64,000 bases of DNA from Candidatus Aminicenantes bacterium. GTDB lineage: Bacteria; Acidobacteriota; Aminicenantia; Aminicenantales; Aminicenantaceae. The notes below the pieces were generated by a model. It searched no databases. It was not told the DNA's origin and saw only the letters and a program-made list of their open reading frames with translations. The translations under genes and the position numbers were made by a program. Shown here one piece after another: positions 7,021-28,629 of this stretch. The stretch is taken from NCBI GenBank assembly GCA_011773465.1, contig WVXO01000012.1:71561-135560 (forward strand), given 5' to 3'. How positions within the stretch are numbered: position 1 is the stretch's first letter; each line of letters begins with the position of its first letter.

Positions 7021-7029
7021 ATCAAGAAA

Positions 7030-8412: not shown

Positions 8413-8441
8413 TTGCAAAAGAGGGGAAGAGAAAAAGGAAG

Positions 8442-8466
8442 AAAAAAAGGGACAGGCTACTTTTTT
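8442..8466 (+). repeat. A-tract/GGACAGGCTAC/T-tract motif copy
   Basis: Sequence aaaaaaagggacaggctactttttt. It is related to copies at 3129 (+), 3221 (-), 8505 (+) and 8753 (-). Confidence 0.6.
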
Positions 8467-8474
8467 AAAAGGTG

Positions 8475-8493
8475 GATTTGATAAATCAAACTC
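8475..8493. repeat. TTGATAAATCAA-core palindrome, degenerate copy
   Basis: Sequence gatttgataaatcaaactc. It has the same core as the palindromes at 62583-62602 and 62617-62640. Confidence 0.5.
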
Positions 8494-8555
8494 GTAAAAG
8501 ATATAAAAAAGTGGACAGGTGTACTAGCTCAATAATTCAGTAACGATTTTATAAT

Positions 8556-8634
8556 GTCATTGCGAACGGAGTGAAGCAATCTCATAAAAAAAGCATTTTC
8601 CCCTAAGAGATTGCCGCGCTTCGCTCGCAATGAC
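8556..8634. repeat. Inverted repeat with 28-bp arms (GTCATTGCGA...GCAATCTC)
   Basis: Left arm 8556-8583 is gtcattgcgaacggagtgaagcaatctc. Right arm 8607-8634 is gagattgccgcgcttcgctcgcaatgac. 23 of 28 positions are complementary by manual alignment, with a 23-nt loop. Confidence 0.7.
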
Positions 8635-8771
8635 ACTTTTGCCTTCAATATCCTTACCAAAGTGTAACCTAATTACTGAGCATAACCAACAGGTCCGTTC
8701 TTTATCCAAAAAGTTATTATAACCTGCAAAACAGAAAAAGATGCCTGAATAGAAAAAGAGGCCTGTCCCCA

Positions 8772-11384
8772 TTAATTAAATCTTCCTGGCACAGCTCTAT
8801 TCGGGTTTATCTTTATTTTTCTGGGCTTAGACTCTAATTCAAAATCAAACTCTTCTTTTCTCTCGTCAATTATCAGTCTTTTCTCGACTCTATTCCCGTT
8901 CTCAATCCACTCTACCCATAAGGGGAAAACGAAGGGCTCTTTCTGTTGGTTGATTCTTAATTTCAGAATGTATCCTCCCTCTTCTTTCAGGACAGAGTGA
9001 GAAACGTTGACCTCAGGGAGAACATAGGAATCAAACCAATTCCTGAAAAATACTGCAAGATCTTTCCCTGATACCGCTCTAATCGTTTTGATGAAATCTT
9101 TCGTACTTGCCGCACCGTACTTATGCCTTCTGAAAAATTCTTGTAATCCTTTAAAAAACGCTTCTTCTCCCAGGAGATCTCTCAGCATATTCAAGACTAA
9201 AGAAGCCTTGTTATAAATTATTGCTTGGTAAGCTTCAGGATTATGATAGTTGAGACGGGAGCCAAGAGTTATCGCTCCCCATATCGATTTTTTTCCAGTC
9301 CATTGAGAGAATTTCTTCAAAATAGAAGGAAATACTCCCTCACCACGCTTCTCGATTAAGTACAAAGTGGCCGAAAACTGAGCTAAGCCTTCGCTTAACC
9401 ATTGATCATGATACGTTTTCCATGTTACGGCTTGCCCCCACCACTGGTGAGCAATTTCATGGGCGATGAAATATTCTTTCCAGCGAGAAAGATCAACCGG
9501 GCTTCTTGTGCTTGCGTATAAACCTCCGTTCTGAGTTGGGGGTAATTCATTAATAACAATAAAAGAGGCTGGGCTATGACCTCCACTCGCAGACCAAATT
9601 CTGCGGACAATAGTTAGCTTTTCGTAAGGATAGGGGCCAAACTTGTTTTCATAGAATTGAATAATATTTTTGGCCTCCTCTAGAAGCCCTTTTTTTTGAA
9701 AGCTGATGCCAGATGCGTAGAAATGCTTTAGCGGCAGAGACTTCAAATCCTCTTCTACCTTAATAAACTTACCAACAAGAAAAGAAAGGTATTTAATCGG
9801 ATATTTTGTTTCAAAGATATAAACAGAGCTTCCTGTTTTTTCTATTTCTTCTACTCTTTCCACATCGTTCAATCTGCTTTTCTCTATCAATTCTCCATTG
9901 GAAATACACTGGTATTCAGGAGGGACAATTATTCTTAAACGGGCCTTGAAATAATCATCACCTGGAGGGGAGGGATACCAGAAGGCACTTCGACTAAAAA
10001 GATAGGTCTCGGATTTAGGAGTTACATAGCTGAGGTTCTTATCAAACTGAAGCCCAGCGATGACATCCGTTACTTGCTTGGGAGGAACAAGCTTTCCCCT
10101 GTAATATATCTCTATGGAGTAAGGCTTATTTTCAGGAGGGGGATGGATAAAATAAACATAAAGAGACCCTCTCAATTTATCTTGGCTGTAGATCAACGCC
10201 CGCTTATCCTCATCATAAATGCGAAGAATATCTAACTCAGGATTAAGCTTAAGCATTATTCGTTCGAGGGAATCAACTTTAGACTCCACTTCAACCTTTG
10301 CTTTCCCAGAAATATAAAACTGTTGAGGTTTAAAGTCGATTTCAATTTTGTAGCTTTTAACTTCAAACATCTCGACGAAAGATATAAAAATTCTCTTTTT
10401 TCTCCCCTCCTTGTAGGGCGAATAAAGGTTGATAATTTTTTCATCTTTCCAGCGGTAAAGATTAATTTCTTCCGGTGTGAAAGGAGAATAGATATAAGCA
10501 AGATCCCCCAACTTTTTTCCTTCAAAGTTGAAAACTACCTCGTTCCCTTGAGGTAAGGCAGTAAGTAACTCTTTATTAAGGGAATTTTCAATCGTGAAGG
10601 ACCGGGAATAATATTTTGAAAACAAGGAGTAAGCTTTATTTCTTTCTAGGATAGAAGCCTGGAAGCCTTCCTCATCTGGATCCTTTACTATCCTGATGTT
10701 CTTCCGAAAAAAATAGTCGGAAAACCTGAGGTAGGCACATGTAAGATCATCTTCAAGAAAGCTTTTTTTATAGATTAAATCAAGCTGATGCTTTTCTCCT
10801 GGGTCAGAGGGATAAAAGTGCAAGTGACCCTTCCCCAAGATAAGAAGGCCCGTTTCAAGGCCTGGGATGTTATCGTAAAAGATTATTGCATCTTTAAAGG
10901 AAAGTTTGATATCCGCATGTTCAACTTCGATCGATTTAACTCTTTCAGCTCTTTCAGATGGAATTTTAATCTTATACATGATATTGACTCTTCCCAGCAC
11001 CCTTTTCTGCTCTATCAGCCACTGATCGTTCACCTTAATAAGCGATAAATGCCAGGTTTCTATGGCAGCAGAGTAAGAATTTTGAAAGAGAGCCTGAAGA
11101 TATATTTTGGCTTCACCCTCTGTTTGGGTCAATTTACTGGGCTTGAATAAAGTCACACTATCCAACCGCAGGACATTAAACCTGTTATTTACAATCAACC
11201 TCTCTTTTTCCCTTACTTCATTTGAAAAACGATTCAGGTATGCCGGGATATCCTTCTGATCTAGGGACTCTTGAATTTGAGAAATAAATTCACTAATACT
11301 TTGCTCTTCAGCAGCAACCTGGGGAATTAAAGAAAATGTAAGGAAGAAGAACAGAGGAAGCCCAAGAATTGATATATTTTTCAT
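8772..11384 (-). CDS. Secreted M1-family zinc metallopeptidase (aminopeptidase N-like)
   Basis: 870 aa with signal peptide MKNISILGLPLFFFLTFSLIPQVAA and the gluzincin motif HEIAHQWWG followed by E 18 residues later (WLSEGLA). Confidence 0.88.
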   Translation of the reverse strand: MKNISILGLPLFFFLTFSLIPQVAAEEQSISEFISQIQESLDQKDIPAYLNRFSNEVREKERLIVNNRFNVLRLDSVTLFKPSKLTQTEGEAKIYLQALFQNSYSAAIETWHLSLIKVNDQWLIEQKRVLGRVNIMYKIKIPSERAERVKSIEVEHADIKLSFKDAIIFYDNIPGLETGLLILGKGHLHFYPSDPGEKHQLDLIYKKSFLEDDLTCAYLRFSDYFFRKNIRIVKDPDEEGFQASILERNKAYSLFSKYYSRSFTIENSLNKELLTALPQGNEVVFNFEGKKLGDLAYIYSPFTPEEINLYRWKDEKIINLYSPYKEGRKKRIFISFVEMFEVKSYKIEIDFKPQQFYISGKAKVEVESKVDSLERIMLKLNPELDILRIYDEDKRALIYSQDKLRGSLYVYFIHPPPENKPYSIEIYYRGKLVPPKQVTDVIAGLQFDKNLSYVTPKSETYLFSRSAFWYPSPPGDDYFKARLRIIVPPEYQCISNGELIEKSRLNDVERVEEIEKTGSSVYIFETKYPIKYLSFLVGKFIKVEEDLKSLPLKHFYASGISFQKKGLLEEAKNIIQFYENKFGPYPYEKLTIVRRIWSASGGHSPASFIVINELPPTQNGGLYASTRSPVDLSRWKEYFIAHEIAHQWWGQAVTWKTYHDQWLSEGLAQFSATLYLIEKRGEGVFPSILKKFSQWTGKKSIWGAITLGSRLNYHNPEAYQAIIYNKASLVLNMLRDLLGEEAFFKGLQEFFRRHKYGAASTKDFIKTIRAVSGKDLAVFFRNWFDSYVLPEVNVSHSVLKEEGGYILKLRINQQKEPFVFPLWVEWIENGNRVEKRLIIDERKEEFDFELESKPRKIKINPNRAVPGRFN

Positions 11385-11490
11385 TTATTTATTATAACAG
11401 AAAGAAGAATTAATATAAATTCTATAGGAATATGCTTATTTTTGTGATACTTCCTCATTCCTTCTTCTTGTGTCCTTATTTTAAAATATA

Positions 11491-11505
11491 GCAATTTTTG
11501 TGCCA
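11491..11505 (-). promoter_or_regulatory. Sigma-54 (-24/-12) promoter TGGCAC-N5-TTGC
   Basis: The minus strand reads TTGGCACAAAAATTGCT, a perfect match to YTGGCAC-N5-TTGCW. It lies about 105 nt upstream of the M1 peptidase start codon at 11384. Confidence 0.6.
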
Positions 11506-11610
11506 AATTAATCCAAGAAAAATATTCCACCTTTGGCTGGGTAAGGATAGTTTTAGGTGAGGTTTATTAAGAATCGGCCGAAAACTGTAAAAAAATTTAA
11601 CACTTGCTTT

Positions 11611-12045
11611 TTATTTTTTTTGCTTGCCTTTGACGAAATCTTCTTCCCAGGTAATAAAGCTGTGGTAGAAAATCTTGTCTCCTTCCTCGATTCCACGAGT
11701 AATTTCTGTAATATGAGAAGTGGAAGCCCCAAAAGCCTCGACAGCATAAAAAACTGCTTTCTCTGGATCTCCAGAGTTGCCGCAAGTGTAGAAGTCTAAG
11801 GCAACATAGCCATATTCTGGCCACGTGTGGCAGGATATATGCGATTCTGAGATCACGATAACTCCGCTGACTCCTTGAGGCGGGAACTTGTTAACAGAAA
11901 TAGACCATACCTGAGCCTGGGCAATCTCTGCAGCTTTGACTAAAATCTGCTGCACTTTATCCACACTCTTAATAATCTTCGGATCACACCCGGATGCTTC
12001 AACGATATAATGATGGCCTATGGATCTGTGAATTTTTTTGGCCAT
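11611..12045 (-). CDS. speH: S-adenosylmethionine decarboxylase proenzyme (pyruvoyl type, class 1)
   Basis: 144 aa with the self-cleavage/active-site region VISESHISCHTWPEYGY typical of SpeH/SpeD. Confidence 0.88.
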   Translation of the reverse strand: MAKKIHRSIGHHYIVEASGCDPKIIKSVDKVQQILVKAAEIAQAQVWSISVNKFPPQGVSGVIVISESHISCHTWPEYGYVALDFYTCGNSGDPEKAVFYAVEAFGASTSHITEITRGIEEGDKIFYHSFITWEEDFVKGKQKK

Positions 12046-12218
12046 TTTGCTTCTCCTTAAAAAGGTTGAATCTAATTATGGCATATTCCTTAACACTGTC
12101 AAGAAAACTTTAGTGGGGGTCAGACCTTTCAAGCTTTTATAATTAGGATATGTCAGTGTAATTAGATAGTAAAGAGAAAACGGAACTGCAGAGTTTGGAT
12201 TAATATTTGGAAAATTTC

Positions 12219-12248
12219 TGGACAAGAATAAAATATATTTGCTATAAT
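12219..12248 (+). promoter_or_regulatory. Candidate sigma-70 promoter TGGACA-N18-TATAAT
   Basis: TGGACA at 12219-12224 and TATAAT at 12243-12248. This would give a leader of about 250 nt before the GTG at 12508. Confidence 0.35.
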
Positions 12249-12507
12249 ACGTTGTTAATATTCTATACATACTTTATAAATTATATATACTTTTAATTTT
12301 ACAGGAGGAATCATAAATTTCATACTCAATTAGAATCTTTCTCCCCCACTTCACAAAAATCGTCCAGGCTCAAGTCAAAGCTCTCAGAATAAACGCAAAC
12401 TGAATATGAGTCCCTACAAAGACTTTTCTCAAAATCATCCCGGGTTGTTATCAGCCTGACCTTTTTGAGAGTAACACAAGAATAAACAAGAATTTGGAGG
12501 GAAATGG

Positions 12508-12972
12508 GTGGAAGTTGAAGAATTAAAAGTCAAAAAGCGAATAAAAAAATACAACAACGAAAAAAAAGCCCTTATATCAATCCTCCAGGATATACAGGAA
12601 GAATATAATTATCTTCCCCCAGAAGCTTTAAAGATTGTCTCAAAATCTCTGGATATTCCTCTTATCGATATCTTCGGGGTGGCTACTTTTTACCGTACTT
12701 TCAGCCTCAAACCACGGGGAAAACATCTCATAACTGTTTGTTTGGGAACCGCCTGTCACGTAAGGGGAGGCCCTAAAATTCTGGAAGAATTTAAAAGAAA
12801 ACTAAATATAAAAGCGGGTGAGACTACAAAAGACATGCGCTTTACGTTGGAAACGGTTGCTTGTTTAGGGTGCTGTGCTATTGGTCCAGTTGTGGTAGTG
12901 GATGGCAACTACCACTCCCAAACGTCTATTGGAACAGTCGATTCGATTCTAAAGAAGTACAGAAAAAAATGA
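12508..12972 (+). CDS. NuoE/HydC-like thioredoxin-fold [2Fe-2S] subunit, copy 1
   Basis: 154 aa with Cys motifs CLGTAC and CLGCC. GTG start with GGAGGG 6 nt upstream. Confidence 0.9.
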   Translation: MEVEELKVKKRIKKYNNEKKALISILQDIQEEYNYLPPEALKIVSKSLDIPLIDIFGVATFYRTFSLKPRGKHLITVCLGTACHVRGGPKILEEFKRKLNIKAGETTKDMRFTLETVACLGCCAIGPVVVVDGNYHSQTSIGTVDSILKKYRKK

Positions 12973-12978
12973 AGTAAA

Positions 12979-15900
12979 GTGAAAAACATAATGAAAATAC
13001 AATCAATCACAGATTTGAAACAAGCTATTGAAATCCAAATCCAAAAAAGAAAATCCACAGAGAAACCTATTCTTACTATCTCAGCAGGAACCTGCGGTCG
13101 GGCAAGGGGATCATTAAGAGTAATTAAGGCTTTAAAAAATGCTATCAAGAAACAAAAGTTAGAAAATGACATTAAAATTAAAGTTACAGGTTGCCATGGT
13201 TTCTGTGAGGCTGAGCCTAACATCATTATTCATCCCCACAATATTTTTTATCAGAAGGTCGAGCCCAAGAACGCTAAAGATATTCTTGCTCAAACTGTAT
13301 TAGGTAATAAAATTATAGACCAACTTTTGTATTCTGATCCCTCCACGAAAGAAAGGTATATCCAGGAAAACGATATTCCTTTTTACAAGCATCAAAAGCG
13401 AATTATTCTTGGGGATAACGCCTTGATTGATCCTACCGATATCAACGATTATCTCTCCATTGGTGGGTACTTATCGCTTGTCAAAGTTTTAAGTAGTATG
13501 ACTCAAGAAGAAATCATCGAGGCCGTGAAGCAATCTGGTCTGAGGGGAAGAGGAGGAGCAGGATTCCATACAGGAAAGAAGTGGGAGTTCGCAAGAAAAG
13601 CTAAAGGAGACACGAAATATATAATCTGCAATGCTGATGAAGGTGACCCCGGAGCCTATATGGATCGAAGTTTATTGGAAGGAAATCCACACCGCGTTCT
13701 GGAAGGCATGATAATAGGAGCTTACGCAATAGGGGCAGAAGAAGGCTATATTTATGTTCGAGATGAATACCCTCTGGCTGTTGAACATGTTTCCTTAGCA
13801 ATCTCTCAAGCCAAAAAATTAGGACTTTTAGGAAAAAACATACTTGGAACAGGCATTAATTTCCAAATCCACATTAACAAGGGAGCTGGGGCCTTTGTCT
13901 GCGGAGAAGAAACAGCTTTAATTGCTTCTATCGAAGGAAGAAAAGGCGAACCTCGCCAGAGGCCTCCCTTCCCTGCTATGAAAGGTTTATGGGGCAAACC
14001 AACAAACATCAATAATGTTGAAACCTGGGCGAATATTCCTGTAATCATTGAAAAGGGCGCTGATTGGTTCTCAAAAATTGGCACGAATGGAAGCAAAGGG
14101 ACGAAGATATTCTCATTAGTTGGCAAAATAAACAATACAGGGCTAGTTGAAGTTCCAATAGGCATAACTTTGCGCGAAATCATATATAACTTAGGAGGAG
14201 GGATTCCAGGCGGCAAGAAGTTTAAGTCAGTCCAGACTGGCGGTCCTTCAGGGGGTTGTATTCCTGATAAATTGCTAGATTTACCTGTAGATTATGAAAG
14301 ACTTGCAGAGGCGGGAAGCATAATGGGATCTGGTGGGATGATCGTTACGGATGAGAACACATGCATGGTGGATCTGGCAAAATATTTCTTGAACTTTCTT
14401 CGCGATGAATCTTGCGGCAAGTGTCTAAGCTGCAGAGAAGGAATCCAGCGCATGTGGGAAATAGTAGCCGACATTACAAAAGGACACGCGACGATGGAAC
14501 AGCTTTATGTATTAGAAGAATTAGCCCTTAAAGTGAAAGATGCTTCAATGTGTGGGCTTGGGCAGACTGCGAGTAATCCTGTCTTGAGTACTTTGAGATA
14601 CTTTAGGGATGAATATAAGGCTCACGTTATAGAAAAATGGTGTCCTGCATTGGTGTGTAAGAGACTTGTGCCTTCTCCCTGTCAAGATGCCTGCCCTGTT
14701 GGTATAGATGTTCCGAGCTATATCGCTATGATTGCTTGGGGCAAATTCAATGAAGCAGTTGATTTGATTAGAGAGGACAATCCTTTTCCAGCAATTTGTG
14801 GACGCGTATGTAATCATCCATGTGAGTTAAATTGTAAAATGGGCGAATTTGATAAGCCTGTTGCCATACATTCACTTAAGCGGTTTTGTGCAGACTACGT
14901 GCTCAAGCGCGAGGGATATAACGTGCCGTCCATACAAAGCAAGAGAAAAGAGAGAGTTGCGATCATCGGATCAGGTCCGGCAGGTTTAACGGCTGCTTAT
15001 AATTTAGCGCGATTAGGCTATAGGACCACTGTATTTGAGGCACTGCCAGTAGCAGGTGGGATGTTATCTGTAGGTATTCCCGCTTATCGTTTACCAAAAG
15101 AGATAGTTAAGGCTGAGATTGATGCAATTCTTGCCCTTGGAGTTGAAATTAAGACCAACGCAGCGATTGGAAAGGATCTAAGCTTAAATGACCTCAAAAA
15201 GAAAGGATATAAGGCGATATTCATAGCCACGGGTGCGTATAAATCATTAAAATTGGGATTGCCCGGAGAGGATGTGTTGAAGGGTATTATTGACTGTGTG
15301 ACTTTCTTGAAAGATGTAAATCTTGGGAACCAGAAGAAACCCGGTGATAAGATTGCTATCCTAGGAGACGATCACATTTCTGTGGACGCGGCACGAGTAT
15401 GCAAGCGCCTTGGTTCAAGTGAAGTAAATATAATTTATAGAAGATCAAAGGAAGAAATGCCTCTAGACTACTCAGAAATTGATCAGGCTATAGATGAAGG
15501 TGTAAAGGTCCATTATTTAACTATTCCTAATAAAATTTTAAGCAAAGAGGGAAAAGTGGCAGGTCTGCAGTGCATTCATGCACGAGTTGGAAAAGCTGAT
15601 AGCAGAAGTCGGAGAGAACTTATCCCGTTAGAAGGTTCCGAGTTTACCATTGATGCCGATACAATAATACGAGCAACCGGTCAAGTACCGGATCTTACGT
15701 TTTTAAACCGTAAGTTTGAAATCTCGAACTGGAATCTGCTTGTTGTTGATCCTTATACTCTACAAACAAATGTATCGGGCGTTTTTGCCGGTGGCGATGT
15801 TGTAACAGGACCTGCAACTGTGATTGAAGCTATAGCAGCTGGCAAAAAGGCAGCTGCATCCATTGATAACTACATTAGTGGTAAGAAGTTTGAAGGATAT

Positions 15901-16095
15901 AAGAGGCCTAAACCCAGGATGCAGATTGAACCTATTCAGTTGACCAAGGAAGAGGAAGAGCTAAAGCGTCCTAAGATGCCGTTACTGAGTAGGAATAAGA
16001 GGTTGCAAAGTTTCGAGGAAGTTGAATTGGGCTACACTGAAAAAATGGCAATTCGTGAAGCGAAACGATGCAGAAGATGTGATATAGAGGAATAG
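12979..16095 (+). CDS. NuoF/HydB-like NAD(H)-FMN subunit fused to a GltD/NfnB-like FAD-NAD(P)H oxidoreductase
   Basis: 1038 aa. N-terminal Trx-like 2Fe-2S domain (TCGRARG...GCHGFCE). FMN/NADH motifs GRGGAGFHTGKKW and NADEGDPGAY. 4Fe-4S motif ESCGKCLSCREG...MCGLG. GltD-type Cys clusters (CQDACP, CGRVCNHPCE), dinucleotide fold VAIIGSGPAGLTAA, and GDVVTGPATVIEAIAAGKKAA. Confidence 0.9.
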   Translation: MKNIMKIQSITDLKQAIEIQIQKRKSTEKPILTISAGTCGRARGSLRVIKALKNAIKKQKLENDIKIKVTGCHGFCEAEPNIIIHPHNIFYQKVEPKNAKDILAQTVLGNKIIDQLLYSDPSTKERYIQENDIPFYKHQKRIILGDNALIDPTDINDYLSIGGYLSLVKVLSSMTQEEIIEAVKQSGLRGRGGAGFHTGKKWEFARKAKGDTKYIICNADEGDPGAYMDRSLLEGNPHRVLEGMIIGAYAIGAEEGYIYVRDEYPLAVEHVSLAISQAKKLGLLGKNILGTGINFQIHINKGAGAFVCGEETALIASIEGRKGEPRQRPPFPAMKGLWGKPTNINNVETWANIPVIIEKGADWFSKIGTNGSKGTKIFSLVGKINNTGLVEVPIGITLREIIYNLGGGIPGGKKFKSVQTGGPSGGCIPDKLLDLPVDYERLAEAGSIMGSGGMIVTDENTCMVDLAKYFLNFLRDESCGKCLSCREGIQRMWEIVADITKGHATMEQLYVLEELALKVKDASMCGLGQTASNPVLSTLRYFRDEYKAHVIEKWCPALVCKRLVPSPCQDACPVGIDVPSYIAMIAWGKFNEAVDLIREDNPFPAICGRVCNHPCELNCKMGEFDKPVAIHSLKRFCADYVLKREGYNVPSIQSKRKERVAIIGSGPAGLTAAYNLARLGYRTTVFEALPVAGGMLSVGIPAYRLPKEIVKAEIDAILALGVEIKTNAAIGKDLSLNDLKKKGYKAIFIATGAYKSLKLGLPGEDVLKGIIDCVTFLKDVNLGNQKKPGDKIAILGDDHISVDAARVCKRLGSSEVNIIYRRSKEEMPLDYSEIDQAIDEGVKVHYLTIPNKILSKEGKVAGLQCIHARVGKADSRSRRELIPLEGSEFTIDADTIIRATGQVPDLTFLNRKFEISNWNLLVVDPYTLQTNVSGVFAGGDVVTGPATVIEAIAAGKKAAASIDNYISGKKFEGYKRPKPRMQIEPIQLTKEEEELKRPKMPLLSRNKRLQSFEEVELGYTEKMAIREAKRCRRCDIEE

Positions 16096-16548
16096 ATGAA
16101 ATTTAATAAAATAGATAAGATCTTAGAAAAGTTCAACATGCAAAAATCACAATTAATCAGTATATTGCAGGATATTCAGAATGAATTTAACTTCTTACCC
16201 ATGGAGGTATTAGGCTATGTTGCAGAGAAATTAGGAATTCCATTTAGTCTTGTGTATCATTTAGCAACTTTCTATAAAACCTTCAGCCTGAAACGGCGAG
16301 GAAGACATTTAATTAATGTGTGTCTTGGCACTGCATGTCACATAAGGGGAGGAGTAAGAATTTTGGAAAAGATTGAAAGAGATCTGAATATAAAATCAGG
16401 ATCGATAACTTTGGATTCTAAATTCAGCTTGGAAGTCGTAAGGTGCGTTGGGTGTTGTAGCCTAGCCCCAGTTATAAGAATCGACGATGATACCCATGGT
16501 CGATTAACACAAGGGAAAATAACACCTATGCTCAAGAAATATGAGTAA
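16096..16548 (+). CDS. NuoE/HydC-like [2Fe-2S] subunit, copy 2
   Basis: 150 aa with CLGTAC and CVGCC. It is a paralog of 12508-12972 and starts immediately after the preceding stop codon. Confidence 0.9.
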   Translation: MKFNKIDKILEKFNMQKSQLISILQDIQNEFNFLPMEVLGYVAEKLGIPFSLVYHLATFYKTFSLKRRGRHLINVCLGTACHIRGGVRILEKIERDLNIKSGSITLDSKFSLEVVRCVGCCSLAPVIRIDDDTHGRLTQGKITPMLKKYE

Positions 16549-18415
16549 TTCAAAAATAGTAACTTTGGACGATTTAGAGCTTCTCAAAGAGAAGGGATTA
16601 AACTTGATTTATCCAACCAAGACAAAGATCAGTGTAGGGATGGCTACTTGTGGCATTTCCACTGGAGCTAGGGAAGTATTCCAAGCAATTTCAGAAGAAG
16701 TGCAGAACCAGAAGCTGGATTGTGTCCTCAGCCAGACCGGATGCCTTGGGTTCTGCCAAAGGGAACCATTGGTAGATGTTATAGAGCCAGGAAAGCCAAA
16801 GGTAGTCTATGCTGAAATGTCTTATGATAAAGTACCAGAGCTAATAACCAATATTAAAAATCAGAAAATTAAAAATGAATGGATGCTATGCCAAATAGGA
16901 GAAAAATACAGCCCAAGATTGGATGGAATACCATTCTACAAAGATGTTGATTTCTATAAAAAACAGAAAAAGATCGCCCTGAGGAATTGTGGTTTTATAA
17001 ATCCTGATTGTATTGAGGAATATATTGCTAAGAGAGGCTACTTCGCATTGCACAAAGTGCTTACTGAAATGAAACCAAAAGAAGTAGTAGATATGATTGC
17101 TGAATCAGGGCTTAGAGGAAGAGGAGGCGCCGGATTCCTGACAGGCAAAAAATGGCAGATTACCAGGTCATCAAAGGGAAAGATTAAATATATAATTTGT
17201 AATGCTGACGAAGGTGACCCTGGTGCTTATATGGACAGAAGCTTATTAGAAGGAGATCCACACAGTGTTTTAGAGGGAATGCTAATAGGAGCTTATGCTA
17301 TAGGTGCAAGTACTGGATATATTTATGTTCGAGCAGAATATCCACAAGCTATAGTAAAATTTTTACAGGCTGTCAAGCAGGCTGAAGAACATGGGTTGCT
17401 CGGGAAGGATATATTCAATTCAGGCTTTAACTTTGAGGTACGAGTAAATAAAGGAGCTGGAGCTTTCGTTTGTGGCGAAGAGACAGCTCTTATCGCTTCA
17501 ATTGAAGGCGGATGGAGTGGACCGAGGCCAAGACCACCTTTTCCTGCAAAGAGCGGCTTATGGGGCAAACCAACTAATATTAATAATGTTGAAACATGGG
17601 CAAATGTTCCTGTAATTATTGATAAAGGGGCAGACTGGTACTCTAAGATCGGGACAGAGAAGAGTAAGGGTACAAAAGTATTCTCTGTGGTTGGAAAAGT
17701 GAACAATACCGGATTAGTGGAAGTACCTATGGGCATTACCTTGAGGGAGATTGTCTATGACATAGGAGGTGGAATTCTCGATAACAGGAAATTCAAGGCT
17801 GTTCAGACAGGCGGCCCATCCGGAGGGTGTATCCCGGAAAGTCTAATAGATCTACCAGTTGACTTTGAAAAACTGACAGAAGTGGGATCTATGATGGGGT
17901 CAGGTGGCATGATTGTAATGGACGAAAATACCTGTATGGTGGATGTAGCTAAATACTTTCTTGCCTTTCTTGAAGATGAATCTTGCGGCAAGTGTGTTCC
18001 ATGTCGGGAAGGGATAGAGAAAATGCGAGAAATACTCAACAATATTTGTAAGGGCGAAGGAGAAGAGGCAGATATTGAATTGCTGGAAGAGATTGCCCTG
18101 ACTGTAAAGGAGATGTCCTTGTGCGGGCTTGGTCAAACTGCGAGTAATCCTGTTCTGACAACCATAAAGTACTTTAGAAATGAATATGAGGAGCACATCA
18201 TAAACAAAAGGTGCCCAGCAGGTGTGTGCCTTGATTTAATCTCATACTCAATTGATGCTGAAAAGTGCAACGGATGTGGAGCTTGTGTGAGACCTTGTCC
18301 AACTCAGGCTATTACTGGAGAGAAAAAGAAACTTCATAGTCTCGACCAAGAGAAATGCATTAAGTGTGGAGCATGTTATGAGACCTGTAAGTTTGATTCG
18401 ATAATCATAAAGTGA
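16541..18415 (+). CDS. NuoF/HydB-like NAD(H)-FMN subunit with a C-terminal 2x[4Fe-4S] ferredoxin domain, copy 2
   Basis: 624 aa with GRGGAGFLTGKKW, NADEGDPGAY, ESCGKCVPCREG, and a C-terminal CNGCGACVRPCP...CIKCGACYETC. It shares long identical peptides with copy 1 (for example KGAGAFVCGEETALIASIEG and GLWGKPTNINNVETWAN). Confidence 0.9.
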   Translation: MSNSKIVTLDDLELLKEKGLNLIYPTKTKISVGMATCGISTGAREVFQAISEEVQNQKLDCVLSQTGCLGFCQREPLVDVIEPGKPKVVYAEMSYDKVPELITNIKNQKIKNEWMLCQIGEKYSPRLDGIPFYKDVDFYKKQKKIALRNCGFINPDCIEEYIAKRGYFALHKVLTEMKPKEVVDMIAESGLRGRGGAGFLTGKKWQITRSSKGKIKYIICNADEGDPGAYMDRSLLEGDPHSVLEGMLIGAYAIGASTGYIYVRAEYPQAIVKFLQAVKQAEEHGLLGKDIFNSGFNFEVRVNKGAGAFVCGEETALIASIEGGWSGPRPRPPFPAKSGLWGKPTNINNVETWANVPVIIDKGADWYSKIGTEKSKGTKVFSVVGKVNNTGLVEVPMGITLREIVYDIGGGILDNRKFKAVQTGGPSGGCIPESLIDLPVDFEKLTEVGSMMGSGGMIVMDENTCMVDVAKYFLAFLEDESCGKCVPCREGIEKMREILNNICKGEGEEADIELLEEIALTVKEMSLCGLGQTASNPVLTTIKYFRNEYEEHIINKRCPAGVCLDLISYSIDAEKCNGCGACVRPCPTQAITGEKKKLHSLDQEKCIKCGACYETCKFDSIIIK

Positions 18416-18421
18416 GGGAAA

Positions 18422-19201
18422 ATGATAACGCTTTTTATTGATAATCAAAAAGTTGCCGTCAAAGAAGGAACGACATTGCTTAAAGCATCCGAAAAACTTG
18501 GAATAGAAATTCCCACACTCTGCTATCATGAAGGACTTCCCCCTTATGGTGCCTGCAGGCTCTGTGTTGTTGAGATAATTGGGGAAAAGAAAAACCGAAT
18601 GGTAGCAGCCTGCTCTTTTCTTGTTGATGAAGGAATGAAGGTTTTAACTATCTCCGACAGAGTTCTGAAGAGGCGACGCATGATTGTAGAATTTCTATTG
18701 GCTAGGTGCCCGGATATAAAAGCAATCAGGGATTTGGCTGATAAAATGGGCATTAAAAAGCCTCGCTTCAAAACTAAGAATTTGGACTGCATCCTTTGCG
18801 GCCTGTGTGTGCGTGTTTGCAATGAAGTTGCGGGAATAGGTGCAATTGGATTTGTGAATCGTGGCAAAAAGTTGAAAGTAGATACTCCTTTTCACCTGGC
18901 ATCGGATGTTTGTATCGGTTGCGGAGCCTGCTCTTTTGTTTGTCCTACAGGTGCTATTGAAATGGAATTGGATGCTGTGAAAAGATTCCGTGAGTTGCTT
19001 GGTATTGAACATAAATGTAGATATTCGCTCATGGGTTTAGTGTCTTACAAGGTTTGTTCCAATAATTATGAGTGTTGGAGGTGTAAGGTTGACCAAAGGA
19101 TTCGAGACTCACTTGCTACCCATCCTATATTTGCGGCAAAAAAGATAAAAACAGAAAAAGTAAATCAATATTTCTCATTTTTAAAAAAAATTCAGGAGTA
19201 G
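18422..19201 (+). CDS. FeS protein resembling only the N-terminal part of NuoG/HydA (2Fe-2S plus 4Fe-4S), with no catalytic domain
   Basis: 259 aa with CYHEGLPPYGACRLCVVEI (2Fe-2S ferredoxin fold), CILCGLCVRVC, CIGCGACSFVCP, and a Cys-containing tail CRYS...CSNNYECWRC. Confidence 0.8.
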   Translation: MITLFIDNQKVAVKEGTTLLKASEKLGIEIPTLCYHEGLPPYGACRLCVVEIIGEKKNRMVAACSFLVDEGMKVLTISDRVLKRRRMIVEFLLARCPDIKAIRDLADKMGIKKPRFKTKNLDCILCGLCVRVCNEVAGIGAIGFVNRGKKLKVDTPFHLASDVCIGCGACSFVCPTGAIEMELDAVKRFRELLGIEHKCRYSLMGLVSYKVCSNNYECWRCKVDQRIRDSLATHPIFAAKKIKTEKVNQYFSFLKKIQE

Positions 19202-19286
19202 CCGATACAATATGAATAGAAGCAATCTTACAGATTTGAAGCATAGAAAAACTCTGGGGAAAGGCTCCGTGGGATAAGGAGAGAAG

Positions 19287-19997
19287 ATGATTACAATTAG
19301 ATTAAACGGTGCAGAGGTTAGAGTTGAAAAGGGATGGACGATTTTAGAGGCCTGTAAGTTTTATGGGATTGCTATTCCAACTCTCTGCTACAACGAAGGG
19401 CTAAGTCCCTACGGAGGCTGCCGCCTCTGTCTTGTGGAGATAGGAGGGGGACTTAAGACCAAATTAGTCTCATCCTGCACTTATCCTGTTGAGGAAGGGC
19501 TTGTGGTTAACACTGATACAAAAAGAGTCATCGAAACGAGAAGGATGATGATAGAGCTTATGATTTCTATTGCTCCTAATTCTAAAACTATCCAGGACTT
19601 GGCCTCTAAATTCGGAGTTACAAAAGTTAGGTTCAAGATTCGAAACGAAGAATGCATCCTCTGCGGCCTCTGTGTCCGTATTTGCAGAGAGCAAATGGAC
19701 GGCAAAGCTATCGGTTTTCAGAATCGAGGGTACAAAAGAAAAATATCGACTCCCTTCGACATCCGCTCTGAGGAATGTCGTCTCTGTGGCGGTTGCATCT
19801 ATATCTGTCCTGCATGCCAGCTGAGGTGCCAAGGCCCGCAACCAGACACAGCTGTTTGCAATGCCTGTCTAACCATGGATCCAACCTGCTTGGACCATTA
19901 CGATGAGCTCCAATGCTGGATGTATGATGCCGGTCGCTGCGGCACTTGTGTTAGAGAAAAAACAGAAAAAAAGAAAACAATGAAAAATAAACTATGA
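19287..19997 (+). CDS. Second truncated NuoG/HydA-N-terminal-like FeS protein
   Basis: 236 aa with CYNEGLSPYGGCRLCLVEI, CILCGLCVRIC, CRLCGGCIYICP and a different Cys-rich tail (CQLRCQ...CNAC...CGTC). Confidence 0.8.
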   Translation: MITIRLNGAEVRVEKGWTILEACKFYGIAIPTLCYNEGLSPYGGCRLCLVEIGGGLKTKLVSSCTYPVEEGLVVNTDTKRVIETRRMMIELMISIAPNSKTIQDLASKFGVTKVRFKIRNEECILCGLCVRICREQMDGKAIGFQNRGYKRKISTPFDIRSEECRLCGGCIYICPACQLRCQGPQPDTAVCNACLTMDPTCLDHYDELQCWMYDAGRCGTCVREKTEKKKTMKNKL

Positions 19998-20063
19998 AGA
20001 GTAATGAATAATAATAAATCTTTTTTCTTACTATTTACTGATTACCAATGAAATAAGGAGGTT

Positions 20064-21650
20064 ATGACAATGGCTTATACAAAACTCAACAGAAGTGCTG
20101 CCACTTTAACAAAGAACAGAACAGAGGGCTCTATCAGCCCCTTTAGCGGGATGTGCGTTACCTGTGTTGACGGTTGTATCGGAATGTGTGAAATAGGAAA
20201 ATCTGCCTATCGTGGTCCTGAAGTTCTCTATCCACAACCCTTTGGTATCATCACTTCAGCCTCTGAAAAAGAATACCCAGTTGACCTTTCTCATTTCAGT
20301 ATCATGGGAACTGCAGTCGGTGCCCATGGCGTAAAAGCTGACTCCGATAAAGCCACATTCCCTAAGGTGACTATTGAAACACGAATAGGACATGATAAAG
20401 GAATTAAGTTAAAAGTCCCTTTTATCGTGTCTGCAATGGGCTCCACCAATGTGGCTAAGCAGAACTGGCAAGGATTAGCCATTGGAGCAGCCCTTTCTGG
20501 AACAATTCTCACCATAGGCGAAAATGTCTGCGGCATGGATGAAGAATCCGAATTCAAAAACGGGAATATTGTCCGGTCCCCTGATATGGAAACCAGGGTG
20601 AACCTGTTTAAAGAATGGCAAGAAAATGGTTACGGTACAATTGCAGTTCAGGCCAATGTGGAAGATACGCGATTGGGAGTTCATGAATATGTTATAAAAA
20701 AATTGGGGGTCGAAGCTGTGGAGCTGAAATGGGGTCAAGGAGCCAAGGACATAGGCGGAGAAGTCAAGATAAAAGATCTAAAGAAAGCCCAGGAATTAAA
20801 AAAGAGAGGCTACATCGTTCTGCCAGACCCTGAAAGTCCCAACGTGATTAAGGCTTTTGAGAAAGGTAGTTTCAAAGAATTTGAAAGACACTCTCGTTTG
20901 GGTATGGTTGAGGAAGAAAGCTTTATACAGAGAGTAGAGGAGCTGAGAAGTGCAGGAGCAAAATATGTATTCCTCAAAACAGGAGCCTACAGACCCGCAG
21001 ACTTAGCCCGGGCAGTAAAATTCTCTTCAAAAGCTAAGATTGACCTTCTAACGGTTGATGGAGCGGGTGGAGGAACAGGAATGAGCCCCTGGCGGATGAT
21101 GAATGAATGGGGCATCCCGAGTGTTGAAATTTGGTCTCTGTTGTATCAGTATCTCCGTAAACTTGATGAGAAAGGAGATTATATCCCGGATGTTGTGGTC
21201 TCTGGAGGAATCACCTTAGAAGACCAGATTTACAAGGCACTGGCTCTAGGAGCCCCTTATTTTAAGGCGGTAGGTATGGCAAGAGGACCCATGGCCGCAA
21301 CAATGGTGGGCAAAACCATTGGCAAGACAATAGAGGAAGGGCTGATTCCTGTATACGTCGAACGTTTCGGAAGCTCTGCTGAAGAAATTTTTGTAACAGC
21401 TCCAGAATTGAAAAGAAAATACAAAGAGAGATTCAACAATATACCTACAGGTGCTATGGGCCTTTACAGTTACTTCACAAGGCTCAGCCAAGGATTACGG
21501 CAGCTCATGGCAGGAAACAGAAAGTTTGCCCTTCAATATATCACTCGAAATGACATCGCGGCTTTAACGCAAGATGGAGCAAACATAAGCGGCATTCCTT
21601 ATATCCTGGATGTCGACAAGGAAGAAGTCGATAAAATCCTGAAAGGCTAA
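20064..21650 (+). CDS. GltB-type FMN-binding glutamate-synthase-family protein (synthase domain only)
   Basis: 528 aa with an N-terminal CVTCVDGCIGMC motif and the TIM-barrel motif DGAGGGTGMSP. There is no glutaminase or GXGXG domain. AAGGAGG at 20055-20061 fits the second ATG (20070) better than 20064. Confidence 0.85.
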   Translation: MTMAYTKLNRSAATLTKNRTEGSISPFSGMCVTCVDGCIGMCEIGKSAYRGPEVLYPQPFGIITSASEKEYPVDLSHFSIMGTAVGAHGVKADSDKATFPKVTIETRIGHDKGIKLKVPFIVSAMGSTNVAKQNWQGLAIGAALSGTILTIGENVCGMDEESEFKNGNIVRSPDMETRVNLFKEWQENGYGTIAVQANVEDTRLGVHEYVIKKLGVEAVELKWGQGAKDIGGEVKIKDLKKAQELKKRGYIVLPDPESPNVIKAFEKGSFKEFERHSRLGMVEEESFIQRVEELRSAGAKYVFLKTGAYRPADLARAVKFSSKAKIDLLTVDGAGGGTGMSPWRMMNEWGIPSVEIWSLLYQYLRKLDEKGDYIPDVVVSGGITLEDQIYKALALGAPYFKAVGMARGPMAATMVGKTIGKTIEEGLIPVYVERFGSSAEEIFVTAPELKRKYKERFNNIPTGAMGLYSYFTRLSQGLRQLMAGNRKFALQYITRNDIAALTQDGANISGIPYILDVDKEEVDKILKG

Positions 21651-24330: not shown

Positions 24331-24896
24331 TGAAAAACCGCCTGAAGGAAGTCATCGAATCTTTGATCTTTATTTCCCTGGAGCCGCTGACGTTAGAGAA
24401 AATTAAAAATGTTCTTCAAGAATACTCAGAAGAGGAGATTGAGAAGGCTATTAAAGAGCTTCTTGAAAGCTATGCTACAAATGAAAGGGGAATCCAGATC
24501 ATCCAATCTGCAGGTGGCTATCTTTTCTCAACAAGGCCTGAGCATGATATATGGATAAGGCGTCTTTTCAAGTTGGAAAGAAAAGCCAAACTATCTTCAG
24601 CGGCTTTGGAGGCTTTGTCAGCCATCGCTTACCACCAACCTGCAACCCTGGCTGAAATCTCGGCTATGAGAGGAGTGGATTCCAGCCACACCCTCAAAAC
24701 TCTCCTTCAGAAAAAACTGATCAAAATTGTAGGAAGAAAAAAGAGCCCAGGGAGTCCGCTGATCTACAGGACGACTGATAAATTTTTAGCATATTTTGGT
24801 CTAACCGATATAAAGGATCTCCCATCTCCAGAGGAGATTTCAAAAATTCTAGAAGAGGAGAAAGATCTTGAGGAAGAAGAAAGCTCTGTTCATTAA
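24327..24896 (+). CDS. scpB: Segregation and condensation protein B
   Basis: 189 aa with IESLIFISLEPLTLEKI and winged-helix repeats, positioned after scpA. Confidence 0.88.
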   Translation: MMKNRLKEVIESLIFISLEPLTLEKIKNVLQEYSEEEIEKAIKELLESYATNERGIQIIQSAGGYLFSTRPEHDIWIRRLFKLERKAKLSSAALEALSAIAYHQPATLAEISAMRGVDSSHTLKTLLQKKLIKIVGRKKSPGSPLIYRTTDKFLAYFGLTDIKDLPSPEEISKILEEEKDLEEEESSVH

Positions 24897-26595: not shown

Positions 26596-26619
26596 TTATG
26601 TATTAATAAGGATAAAATT

Positions 26620-27183
26620 ATGAAAAAAATCACTCTCGCAGCTTTAATTCTTCTCGTTCTCCTCATTCTGGTCATATTCCCTCAAGAAAGGAAAGAATCT
26701 TCTTCTCCGCTTTTTGAACAGCCACTCCTGATCACTTCAGCAGGCCAGAATGCCGAAATTCTAATGGCTTCGGTCCTGGCAAAAAGAGCAGGGCTCGACT
26801 CGAAACTATCAAAAATTGCCACTCCGAAGGATTTAGTGAACATAAAAACTATTGTCCTGGTCCTGGGAGCAAGTTCAAAAGGCCTTGGAGCGGCAGGACT
26901 GGATATGACCAAAGAAAAGGAAAGAGTCAATCTGCTGATTGAAGAAGCTCAAAAGAAAACCGTTCCCCTCCTTTGCCTACACCTTGGCGGAGAAGCAAGA
27001 AGAGGCCCGCTATCAGATGAACTGATATCCGCTTTTCTTCCTTTCGCCAAAATGGCCATCGTGGTTAAGTCAGGAAATAAAGACGGATTTTTATCCGGGA
27101 TTTGTGAAAAGCACGACATTGCTCTTGTAGAAGTTGAAAAAACAGCGGATGTCTTAACTCCTTTAAAAGACGCGTTTAAATAA
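26620..27183 (+). CDS. Hypothetical signal-anchored protein (about 160-aa alpha/beta-like domain)
   Basis: 187 aa with N-terminal anchor MKKITLAALILLVLLILVIF. I could assign no motif. It starts 24 nt after ggt. Confidence 0.6.
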   Translation: MKKITLAALILLVLLILVIFPQERKESSSPLFEQPLLITSAGQNAEILMASVLAKRAGLDSKLSKIATPKDLVNIKTIVLVLGASSKGLGAAGLDMTKEKERVNLLIEEAQKKTVPLLCLHLGGEARRGPLSDELISAFLPFAKMAIVVKSGNKDGFLSGICEKHDIALVEVEKTADVLTPLKDAFK

Positions 27184-27315
27184 GAAAAGCCTTTCTCCCG
27201 TAAGTTTATCTAAAAGGATAAGTGAAGTATAAGAAATTCAACAGATAGATATTACAGAAGAGAAATCTAAGTAAAAGGATCTGATTTCTTTTTCGTAATT
27301 TTGCCTTTGATAAGG

Positions 27316-27335
27316 AAAAAGGGGCCAGGCCCCAT
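27316..27335. repeat. GGGGCCAGGCCCC palindrome family copy
   Basis: Sequence aaaaaggggccaggccccat. It lies between co-directional genes and has no T-run on the plus strand. Confidence 0.7.
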
Positions 27336-27351
27336 AATACCCTAATATAAA

Positions 27352-28620: not shown

Positions 28621-28629
28621 AGGTCCTTA

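Follow-up and report, generated by a model that had tools for sequence, protein, structure and literature searches.

Bfu (HydABC-type) enzymes are central to the energy conservation of anaerobes. A survey of the family lists H2, formate, NADPH, F420, aldehydes, pyruvate, CO, aryl-CoA, quinone and H2O2 as third substrates and leaves 17 clades unassigned (PMC9304861); glutamate synthase is mentioned neither in its text nor in its supplement. Among described subunits, WorA is a short BfuA with clusters A1, A2 and A4 and no A3, whose Cys-bearing C-terminal piece recruits the catalytic module (PMC12318220). In archaeal hybrid hydrogenases, HydB carries a glutamate-synthase (GltA/GltD) domain that was proposed to be the site of a second, low-potential partner (PMC11216029). 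The subject of this study is a seven-gene cluster (g1 to g7) of a Candidatus Aminicenantes bacterium, contained in a stretch of 64,000 nucleotides from contig WVXO01000012.1 that was analysed as a whole (the window). Set against the family criteria of PMC9304861, PMC11829005 and PMC12318220, the predicted gene products have most of the defining Bfu features, the main exception being the missing B3/B4 tail in g2, and they lack defining features of NfnABC (position of the NADPH module, no extra subunit) and of glutamate synthase (amidotransferase, 3Fe-4S site). By these predictions the system is a Type-2-like Bfu enzyme with a GltB-like catalytic subunit, present in the window in a rare double-core form. 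No description of a GltB-like Bfu partner or of this operon was found in the Bfu, Nfn, hydrogenase and metagenome-assembled genome (MAG) literature.

A widespread four-gene operon in the Bfu family

As an earlier note on this DNA had it, the seven open reading frames (ORFs) lie in the same orientation and are tightly packed, the intervals from g1-g2 to g6-g7 being, in order, 6, 0, -8 (an overlap), 6, 85 and 66 nucleotides (nt). Pfam and NCBIfam profile searches bore out the domain content named there for all seven genes, and Pfam likewise the absence of H-cluster, molybdopterin and amidotransferase domains. The assignment to a Bfu (HydABC)-type system also held: it agrees with the BfuB alignments, the DEGDPGAYMDR pocket, the finding of WorA as best match in the PDB and the co-occurrence of the genes elsewhere, and no homolog that is already a characterised enzyme was found. 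The paralogs within the cluster are 53% (g1/g3), 57% (g2/g4 core) and 50% (g5/g6) identical.

The protein encoded by g4 aligns end-to-end, over its residues 36-621, with the HydB subunit of the Acetomicrobium mobile NiFe enzyme (7T2R_B, 773 bits), and full-length also with NfnB 9N5U_B (Tsib), Csac NfnB, StnB 8OH5_B (S. ovata) and FeFe HydBs. Residues 34-565 of g2 align with residues 10-541 of 7T2R_B (740 bits). From residue 566 on, g2 continues as an NADPH/flavin adenine dinucleotide (FAD) module resembling NfnA/StnC and NfnB: residues 566-1035 match residues 102-567 of Csac NfnA (9BOV_A) with 399 bits and Tsib NfnA with 372 bits, and the module is 32% identical to E. coli GltD. It begins after the B2 (Zn) motif, exactly at the ferredoxin-binding B3/B4 site of canonical BfuB. 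The C-terminal B3/B4 2x[4Fe-4S] domain itself (IPR017896) is present in g4 (Fer4 at residues 570-620), g2 having Fer4_20 and Pyr_redox_2 instead. Both proteins contain the BfuB core features Complex1_51K, SLBB and NADH_4Fe-4S (IPR011538, IPR019554, IPR019575), as well as the thioredoxin-like N-terminal domain (B5 site), their alignments starting at 7T2R_B residue 10-14; on these N-termini the Pfam model 2Fe-2S_thioredx stays sub-threshold, at 19.7-21.9 bits. The B2/Zn motif reads H..KRCPAGVC in g4 and H..KWCPALVC in g2. The Bfu-type flavin mononucleotide (FMN) pocket DEGDPGAYMDR is common to the two, with DEGDPGAFMDR as its counterpart in 7T2R_B (A202/M204 of A. mobile HydB); pocket residues of the A202/M204 type were reported by Schut et al. 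2022 solely in bifurcating members (PMC9304861).

Both g1 and g3 match the BfuC profile PF01257 (scores in Table 1) with all four cysteines present, and g1 shares 76-80% identity with its NuoE-like counterpart in four-gene Aminicenantes operons. Beyond Aminicenantes, the C-terminus of the NuoE-like subunit is usually a zinc-ribbon-like extension of about 130 amino acids with four CxxC pairs. This four-CxxC piece is a separate ORF of 134 amino acids in two loci, and a two-repeat Cys-rich protein of about 100 amino acids (CVNCRH...HCEE) precedes the operon in 13 loci. Examples of the extension and of the small Cys-rich proteins lie at L050 5243-6091, L015 5592-5999, L024 4236-4640 and L060 1647-1958; neither the NuoE extension nor the CVNCRH...HCEE protein was matched by a Pfam or NCBIfam model. 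As for the adaptors, g5 and g6 have WorA (9MQX_A) as their best PDB match and show the BfuA features Fer2_4 plus Fer4_7/Fer4_21, with the A1, A2 and A4 cysteines 100% conserved. The g6 family is marked by seven or eight extra conserved cysteines in the C-terminal part (C177, C181, C191, C194, C201, C210 and C218 in g6, in columns 87-100% conserved among 63 homologs), three of which are missing in g5. In the loci retrieved via g7, the g6-type adaptor always lies directly upstream of the g7 homolog.

A pattern made from an eight-sequence alignment of g7 was scanned over the GTDB species genomes (one per species, a collection of 185,579) and identified at least 587 stretches with g7 relatives. 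Gene order was read in the best 80 of these at least 587 loci (67-89% identity to g7), which were annotated with a simple ORF caller, tblastn of the window's domains and single-linkage families. Represented among the 80 are Aminicenantes, Zixibacteria, Ignavibacteria/Bacteroidota, Planctomycetota, Latescibacterota, Syntrophia, Dehalococcoidia, Bacillota, Thermoplasmata, Altiarchaeales and others. Wherever the flank allows it, the genes of these 80 loci are arranged as NuoE, NuoF (GltD-fused or with a ferredoxin-type tail), g6-like adaptor and g7 homolog. In 61 of the 62 loci whose upstream sequence extends over 4.8 kb or more, from more than 15 bacterial and archaeal phyla, the g7 homolog follows NuoF and adaptor; the loci having been selected through g7, the frequency of NuoE/NuoF/adaptor sets without it is not readable from these counts, and the junction-based search described below informs on it only in part. 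The NuoF subunit is GltD-fused in 41 of the 62, ends in a ferredoxin tail in 20 and is lacking in one, and NuoE is present in 59.

The cluster of one complete Aminicenantes genome, flanked as in the window, consists of the NuoE-like, NuoF::GltD, adaptor and GltB-like genes only, and g1, g2, g6 and g7 are orthologs of the four-gene Aminicenantes operon (75-88% identity). The conserved functional unit is BfuC (g1) - BfuB (g2) - short BfuA (g6) - g7, an ancestral and widespread four-gene operon. Among the loci examined, the seven-gene order is confined to the window, L013 and L088, all Aminicenantes. The genes of the arrangement described in the earlier note thus do co-occur in other genomes, while the complete set of seven proved to be limited to few Aminicenantes, the four-gene unit being the widespread form. 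The note's division of labour has to be redrawn as well: g1 and g2, considered there as a possible two-subunit transhydrogenase, belong to the conserved g1-g2-g6-g7 operon, and the second pair, both adaptors and g7, which were there suggested to form one enzyme, include an inserted extra BfuCBA core (g3-g4-g5).

BfuB thus comes in two interchangeable forms in g7-type operons, one with a ferredoxin-type 2x[4Fe-4S] tail and one, as in g2, with an NfnA/GltD-like FAD module. The two forms are interleaved in a neighbour-joining tree of the BfuB core, calculated from a single alignment, indicating that the C-terminal module has been swapped repeatedly. If so, NADP(H), via FAD, and ferredoxin would serve one and the same branch.

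In order to avoid circularity, the NuoF::GltD junction, rather than g7, was used as query on metagenome contigs, yielding 46 loci with enough downstream DNA. The genes that follow NuoF::GltD are a g6-like adaptor and a g7 homolog in 12 loci, [FeFe] HydA in 8, an adaptor and [NiFe] HoxYH-like genes in 8, an FdhA-like molybdopterin subunit in 5 and unrecognised genes in 13. That HydA, HoxYH, FdhA-like subunits or g7 can follow NuoF::GltD places g7 in the position of the catalytic subunit, so that the cluster no longer lacks a catalytic partner, as was first thought; it also makes the GltD-fused BfuB a general module.

Table 1. Features of the redox operon and its upstream region (positions in the window)
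Feature	Positions	Strand	Length (amino acids unless stated)	Description
Candidate sigma-70-type promoter	12219-12248	+		TGGACA-18-TATAAT with extended TG; 11/12 consensus positions
5' leader	12249-12507	+	about 260 nt	
g1	12508-12972	+	154	BfuC/NuoE-like [2Fe-2S] subunit (C1 cluster); Pfam 2Fe-2S_thioredx 176 bits
g2	12979-16095	+	1038	Complex1_51K + SLBB + NADH_4Fe-4S + Fer4_20 + Pyr_redox_2
g2 residues 1-565	12979-14673	+		BfuB core: N-terminal thioredoxin-like domain, FMN/NADH site, SLBB, B1 [4Fe-4S], H-x5-C-x4-C (B2/Zn)
g2 residues 566-1038	14674-16095	+		NfnA/GltD-like module: 2x[4Fe-4S], FAD, NAD(P)H site
g3	16096-16548	+	150	Second BfuC/NuoE-like subunit; 2Fe-2S_thioredx 162 bits
g4	16541-18415	+	624	Canonical full-length BfuB: FMN, B1, B2/Zn, C-terminal B3/B4 2x[4Fe-4S]
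g5	18422-19201	+	259	Short BfuA: A1 [2Fe-2S], A2 + A4 [4Fe-4S], without His-ligated A3; Fer2_4 + dicluster
g6	19287-19997	+	236	Short BfuA adaptor: A1, A2, A4 + Cys-rich C-terminal extension; Fer2_4 + dicluster
g7	20064-21650	+	528	Divergent glutamate-synthase-type FMN (beta/alpha)8 protein; PF01645; four-Cys motif encoded at 20154-20189

The g3-g4-g5 core

The genes g3, g4 and g5 are a complete second, canonical BfuCBA core, inserted between the genes for BfuB and for BfuA of the resident operon; this core was acquired by an Aminicenantes sublineage from the core type that serves Hdr/Mvh complexes. In the neighbour-joining tree, g4 groups with Hdr-type Bfu cores and not with the clade of GltB operons, and g2 groups with the Aminicenantes four-gene operons. 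Outside Aminicenantes, g5 has as its relatives short BfuA proteins, often ending in a GcvH (lipoyl) domain, that are encoded in BfuC-BfuB-BfuA-HdrA/FlpD/CCG clusters; the g5 family comprises about 13 clusters at 70-100% identity. Hdr, MvhD and CCG genes were not seen in the window as far as examined. The insert supplies a ferredoxin-binding BfuB (g4), which g2 is not.

At one locus (L086), the place of g6 and g7 after a block of NuoE, NuoF::GltD, NuoE (69% identical to g3), NuoF with ferredoxin tail (74% to g4) and adaptor (71% to g5) is taken by a second adaptor, HdrA, MvhD and a [NiFe] hydrogenase. The double core thus occurs again, here with an entirely different catalytic partner. The locus (722-18780) starts with a response-regulator::GcvH::HdrC-like protein and an HdrB-like protein, then has the double Bfu core with two adaptors and, after it, two HdrA-like proteins, two MvhD/FlpD proteins and a [NiFe] hydrogenase. 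Short BfuA proteins fused to GcvH were also observed (L083 4843-6141; L090 8001-9284), in clusters of the type BfuC-BfuB-BfuA::GcvH-HdrA-FlpD-(GcvH)-CCG. Their gene content suggests another uncharacterised Bfu class, with a lipoyl-protein or a heterodisulfide-like compound as putative substrate.

Comparison of the window with L013 gives 56% identity for g3 and 70% for g4, as against 80-90% for g1, g2, g5, g6 and g7. The ferredoxin-type tail of g4 is 98% identical despite the 70% overall (L013 6033-8346 versus window 16096-18415). The divergence of g3 and g4 could reflect a mosaic, recombination or relaxed constraint.

The g7 protein and its proposed reaction

The Glu_synthase profile (PF01645) matches g7 with 75 bits (cutoff 20.4) over residues 281-412 only, a part of the model; FMN_dh (PF01070) reaches 17.5 bits, under its cutoff of 24.9. 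In local alignment, g7 and the FMN domain of E. coli GltB score 122 (shuffles, 48 +/- 9.5), with SAMG/IGEN, Q..RLGV, ELKWGQGAK, LKTGA, DGAGGGTGMSP, GG..ED..KALALGA and the C-terminal helix in register; the GltB-equivalent motifs QGAK, GE, R.GV and GGTGxSP align with the E. coli protein and are invariant in g7 homologs. When the g7 family was compared with the same domain by hhalign, the C-terminal half alone was aligned, with a probability of 49.5%; the motifs towards the N-terminus were placed on GltB by local pairwise alignment and inspection. Invariant in 78 homologs are E153, Q225, K228, E233, R275 and H276, together with the N-terminal motif C31-x2-C34-x3-C38-x3-C42; no cysteine is conserved beyond these four. 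With 1122 clusters at 50% identity (among 1.84 billion), the family is a small and distinct one. A protein 100% identical to g7 is known from a Candidatus Aminicenantes MAG, relatives of g7 are annotated from Met3 (526 amino acids), and MAG pipelines call g7 "glutamate synthase domain 2" or "FMN-binding glutamate synthase family protein". Membership in the alpha-hydroxyacid oxidase family was rejected on the sub-threshold FMN_dh score, and membership in the N-methylglutamate synthase family by the lack of a fitting gene context.

The AlphaFold2 (AF2) model of g7 contains a confident barrel (predicted template-modelling score 0.76; predicted local distance difference test 68). The underlying alignment is shallow, since a profile search of a 5.8-billion-protein set, started from a diverse alignment, recovered Aminicenantes sequences almost exclusively and broadened it little; the model is hence only moderate.

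One g7 homolog of 800 amino acids (P0238) is an N-terminal fusion to 2x[4Fe-4S] and FrhB_N/FrhB_C (F420-binding) domains, with the Cys motif kept, indicating that electron-input modules of different kinds can be joined to the g7 barrel. It is similar to the "F420-dependent glutamate synthases" that have been proposed to exist in methanogens and anaerobic methanotrophic archaea (ANME). A more distant g7 paralog (48-60% identity), devoid of NuoE, NuoF and adaptor genes of its own, accompanies some operons (L019 4123-5706, L035 3009-4586, L053 10270-11853, L080 12189-13772); the one at L019 sits between two IclR-type regulators.

The operon keeps recurrent company with nitrogen genes. Within 10 kb of it, and often as its immediate neighbour, 14 loci from at least seven phyla have a glutamate dehydrogenase gene; over the same distance, glutamine synthetase and NrpR are each encoded in 4 loci, sigma-54 activators in 23 and histidine kinases in 17, and Lrp/AsnC regulators occur as well. 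In 13 of 43 loci, the operon has sigma-54 -24/-12 sites upstream. In six loci (L007, L040, L057, L027, L068, L072), the operon or the glutamate dehydrogenase gene adjoins a gene for a protein of about 1000-1080 amino acids that, by inspection, has a phosphoenolpyruvate/pyruvate-binding region (as in pyruvate phosphate dikinase) and in some cases an N-terminal receiver-like part.

From the preserved substrate-site motifs of glutamate synthase (GltS) and the nitrogen-gene neighbours, we infer that reductive amination of 2-oxoglutarate with free ammonia is the best-supported reaction for what had been noted as an enzyme with an unknown third substrate. Our reading, which we rate at about an even chance, is that the operon specifies one flavin/iron-sulfur oxidoreductase of the Bfu (HydABC) family, with g7 as the putative substrate-converting subunit, for NAD(P)H/ferredoxin-linked, ammonia-dependent reductive amination of 2-oxoglutarate. 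NAD(H) would react at the BfuB FMN and electrons would pass through B1 to the A1, A2 and A4 clusters of g6, from there to the Cys-rich C-terminus of g6, the N-terminal four-Cys cluster of g7 and finally the g7 FMN. At this FMN, 2-oxoglutarate and free ammonia would be converted to glutamate by glutamate-synthase chemistry without an amidotransferase domain. A second branch would run through the NuoE-type C1 cluster, exchanging electrons with NADP(H) at the g2 module and with ferredoxin at the g4 tail. This path is proposed because of the homology with solved Bfu enzymes and the invariable pairing of g6 and g7 genes.

More speculatively, the exergonic amination could be coupled, at the B1-FMN-C1 site, to a low-potential partner. 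NADH and either NADPH or reduced ferredoxin might act as co-donors (confurcation), conferring very high affinity for ammonium; alternatively NADH might be the donor, the exergonic amination driving reduction of NADP+ or ferredoxin. A low-potential co-donor would allow ammonium to be assimilated without ATP. We propose only tentatively, considering it possible though not the outcome we expect, that the four-gene unit represents a widespread unrecognised route of ATP-independent ammonium assimilation, in the form of a bifurcating or confurcating glutamate synthase coupled to reduction of NADP+ or ferredoxin or else driven by a low-potential donor, so that very low concentrations of ammonium could be reached. 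If so, the seven-gene form of Aminicenantes would integrate NADH, NADPH and ferredoxin in one double-core complex.

A number of points weigh against 2-oxoglutarate amination by a coupled Bfu enzyme. The 2-oxoglutarate/NH4+ couple lies well above NADH; an acceptor of such high potential needs neither NADPH nor ferredoxin, and a plain uncoupled reductase is possible. The CX5CX4C 3Fe-4S site of glutamate synthase is absent from g7, with no cysteine in that region, and so are, by Pfam, the amidotransferase, central and GXGXG domains that define the enzyme; tblastn with these domains of E. coli GltB gave no match (E <= 1e-3) in the 64-kb window and about 88 loci, the sequence that this search covered. 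A phmmer search of PDB chains with g7 found nothing, and the g7 family profile reached solved GltS only marginally (E = 0.04 over 90 residues), which leaves no structural homolog usable for residue-level inference. The first 100 residues of the AF2 model are of low confidence, and the top Foldseek matches of the model in the PDB are FMN alpha-hydroxyacid oxidases with template-modelling scores of 0.35-0.55, generic FMN barrels. The sigma-54 activators near the operon are generic members of the NtrC family, below every equivalog cutoff, and were ruled out as NtrC proper; in the window, the sole perfect sigma-54 promoter is directed at an M1 peptidase gene, not at the operon. The stronger divergence of g3 and g4 between the window and L013 leaves room for relaxed constraint. 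Finally, the B3/B4 domain that the NuoF::GltD type lacks is treated by Schut et al. as defining a bifurcating BfuB (PMC9304861).

Two alternatives keep the Bfu-like architecture and differ in what it does. A linear, non-bifurcating NAD(P)H reductase acting on the same substrate, with the BfuBC-like core as diaphorase input as in Hox and NAD-dependent formate dehydrogenase, is possible in our estimate but would not be our first guess. Reduction of 2-oxoglutarate and NH4+ by NAD(P)H is, by textbook thermodynamics, exergonic already, and NuoF::GltD, besides being without B3/B4, is also found with Hox-type [NiFe] hydrogenases, usually regarded as non-bifurcating; yet the thioredoxin-like domain, the B2/Zn motif and a pocket of A202/M204 type, bifurcating-only features according to Schut et al., are preserved in both g2 and g4, and the repeated exchange of ferredoxin tail and NADPH module at one position suggests that a second redox partner is functionally required. 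We judge it unlikely, although a serious contender, that g7 acts on another 2-oxo or 2-hydroxy acid (2-hydroxyglutarate, lactate), an imine or an enoate, its link with glutamate being regulatory or coincidental. GltB-domain homologs with other roles are known, for example subunit C of N-methylglutamate synthase. The g7 model is nearest to FMN-dependent lactate, glycolate and hydroxyacid oxidases, the sequence similarity to real GltB is weak with the amidotransferase and ammonia-tunnel domains missing, and a neighbouring glutamate dehydrogenase would fit catabolism via 2-oxoglutarate, too. What speaks for the glutamate side is that Glu_synthase, not FMN_dh, is the profile that exceeds its cutoff, that g7 homologs invariably have QGAK, GE, R..GV and a C-terminal helix of GltS type, all in register with E. 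coli GltB, and that glutamine synthetase, NrpR and NtrC-family neighbours favour nitrogen assimilation over hydroxyacid metabolism.

The remaining alternatives concern which genes form the enzyme. Two enzymes might merely be co-transcribed, g1-g2 as a Stn/Nfn-like NADH:NADP(H) transhydrogenase and g3-g4 with g5, g6 and g7 as the bifurcating one. Canonical BfuB can evidently serve g7, as ferredoxin-tail NuoF, adaptor and g7 homolog occur as a four-gene operon in 20 loci; g3, g4 and g5 together make a full BfuCBA set, and 13 metagenome loci classed as "other/none" have NuoE-like, NuoF::GltD and adaptor genes with no catalytic gene recognised downstream. The split is nonetheless quite improbable: NuoF::GltD is the sole NuoF-type subunit, directly before g6-like adaptor and g7 homolog, in 41 of the 62 loci, an adaptor-type gene is found at every NuoF::GltD locus examined, leaving a two-subunit enzyme without precedent there, and the orthology of g1, g2, g6 and g7 to the four-gene operon and the grouping of g4 with Hdr-type cores separate the genes along another line. 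The same double block before Hdr/Mvh genes in L086, moreover, indicates that both cores travel together. As for g3-g5 being a passenger without part in the g7 enzyme, either decaying or working with a partner elsewhere (such as an Hdr-like complex), the divergence of g3 and g4 from their L013 counterparts and the usual HdrA/FlpD/CCG neighbours of g5 relatives would fit; we hold this to be quite improbable, too, as g3, g4 and g5 have lost neither the FMN pocket nor any of the cluster-binding cysteines, the junctions of 0, -8 and 6 nt are translationally coupled, and the insert is kept in identical order in at least three genomes.

Regulation, flanking genes and relation to known systems

The candidate promoter singled out in the earlier note stood up, both in its match to the consensus (Table 1) and in being kept across relatives: TTGACA-N17/18-TGnTATAA is found upstream of the operon in 8 Aminicenantes loci. 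About 30 nt past the -10 element, the leader contains the motif AGGAGGAATCATAAAT, seen in 5-6 of these 8 loci, and a terminator-like hairpin followed by a T-run (12441-12458) lies directly before the real ribosome-binding site. The leader may be an unrecognised attenuator, judging from these elements. An Rfam search of its approximately 260 nt gave no family at E <= 1, leaving the idea of a riboswitch or other known RNA unsupported.

No sigma-54 site was found upstream of g1. The perfect sigma-54 promoter mentioned above, TGGCACAAAAATTGCT, is at 11490-11505 on the minus strand, about 105 nt upstream of the M1 peptidase gene (8772-11384, minus strand), and adjoins genes for a PDZ-GAF-PAS histidine kinase and a sigma-54 response regulator (4138-8412, plus strand). 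From this layout, the two-component system probably controls the M1 peptidase rather than the redox operon. The immediate flanks are unrelated to the cluster: upstream, on the minus strand, AdoMet decarboxylase and the M1 peptidase; downstream, an M50 peptidase and tryptophanyl-tRNA synthetase. Further downstream (24868-29907), the window encodes gamma-glutamyltranspeptidase, DUF6305, a DctM/DcuC-like transporter and an AstE/AspA-family (succinylglutamate desuccinylase-like) protein; the same set, from gamma-glutamyltranspeptidase to AstE/AspA, follows the cluster in L002, L005 and L088, and may hint at glutamate or gamma-glutamyl-peptide metabolism nearby.

The analysis defines one Bfu class among those lacking an assigned third substrate, characterised by a glutamate-synthase-like FMN subunit and nitrogen-gene neighbours and present in hundreds of species-level genomes, mostly of uncultured phyla. 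Should the proposed chemistry be true, it would link electron bifurcation to nitrogen assimilation and provide energy-starved anaerobes with an ATP-free alternative to the glutamine synthetase-glutamate synthase (GS-GOGAT) pathway. The annotation labels of g7 give no hint of such a role, and reconstructions of nitrogen metabolism in these phyla may therefore need revisiting. The exchange of ferredoxin tail and NADPH/FAD module in BfuB, as well as the double-core clusters, are natural experiments on the low-potential branch of Bfu enzymes.

With WorABCSL of Acetomicrobium mobile (PDB 9MQX; PMC12318220; PMC9304861), the system shares the BfuC + BfuB core and a BfuA of about 240 amino acids (A1, A2, A4, no A3) whose Cys-containing C-terminal extension recruits a separate catalytic subunit. 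The catalytic side of WorABCSL is the tungstopterin protein WorL with the polyferredoxin WorS, whereas here it is a GltB-like FMN barrel with a four-Cys site; most members, including g2, moreover have an FAD/NAD(P)H module in exchange for the ferredoxin-binding BfuB tail, and the present cluster has two BfuBC cores and two BfuA subunits. NfnABC/StnABC (9BOV, 9N5U, 8OH5; PMC11829005, PMC12018979, PMC7483475) have in common with it the BfuBC core and a GltD/NfnB-like NADPH module with FAD and 2x[4Fe-4S]. In Nfn/Stn, however, this module lies within BfuA, in the mid-potential branch, with NADPH as third substrate, while here it is C-terminal on BfuB, replacing B3/B4, and g5 and g6 have no FAD domain. 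Furthermore, those enzymes consist of three genes with no extra catalytic subunit, unlike the present operon, with its g7 homolog in 61 of the 62 loci chosen via g7.

The relation to glutamate synthase (GltBD, ferredoxin-dependent GltS, the archaeal split and the proposed F420 forms; PMC8097209; PMC9012536) lies in the FMN (beta/alpha)8 domain, with QGAK, GE and GGTGxSP, in the presence of a GltD-like FAD + 2x[4Fe-4S] donor module, and in the existence of an FrhB-fused homolog. In contrast to GltS, there is no PurF-type amidotransferase, central or GXGXG domain, CxxCxxxCxxxC at the N-terminus stands in place of the CX5CX4C 3Fe-4S site, and electrons would arrive via a chain of NuoE/NuoF/NuoG type. 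Archaeal hybrid hydrogenases (Greening et al. 2024, PMC11216029) contain the same NuoF/HydB::GltD-like fusion as g2, with a hydrogenase as the partner where the present operon has the GltB-like FMN protein. Last, Bfu cores linked to Hdr-type modules (Bam-Bfu type; Schut et al. 2022) are comparable with g3-g4-g5, whose nearest relatives belong to BfuC-BfuB-BfuA-HdrA/MvhD/HdrBC-like clusters; unlike these, the trio of the window is embedded in a g7 operon.

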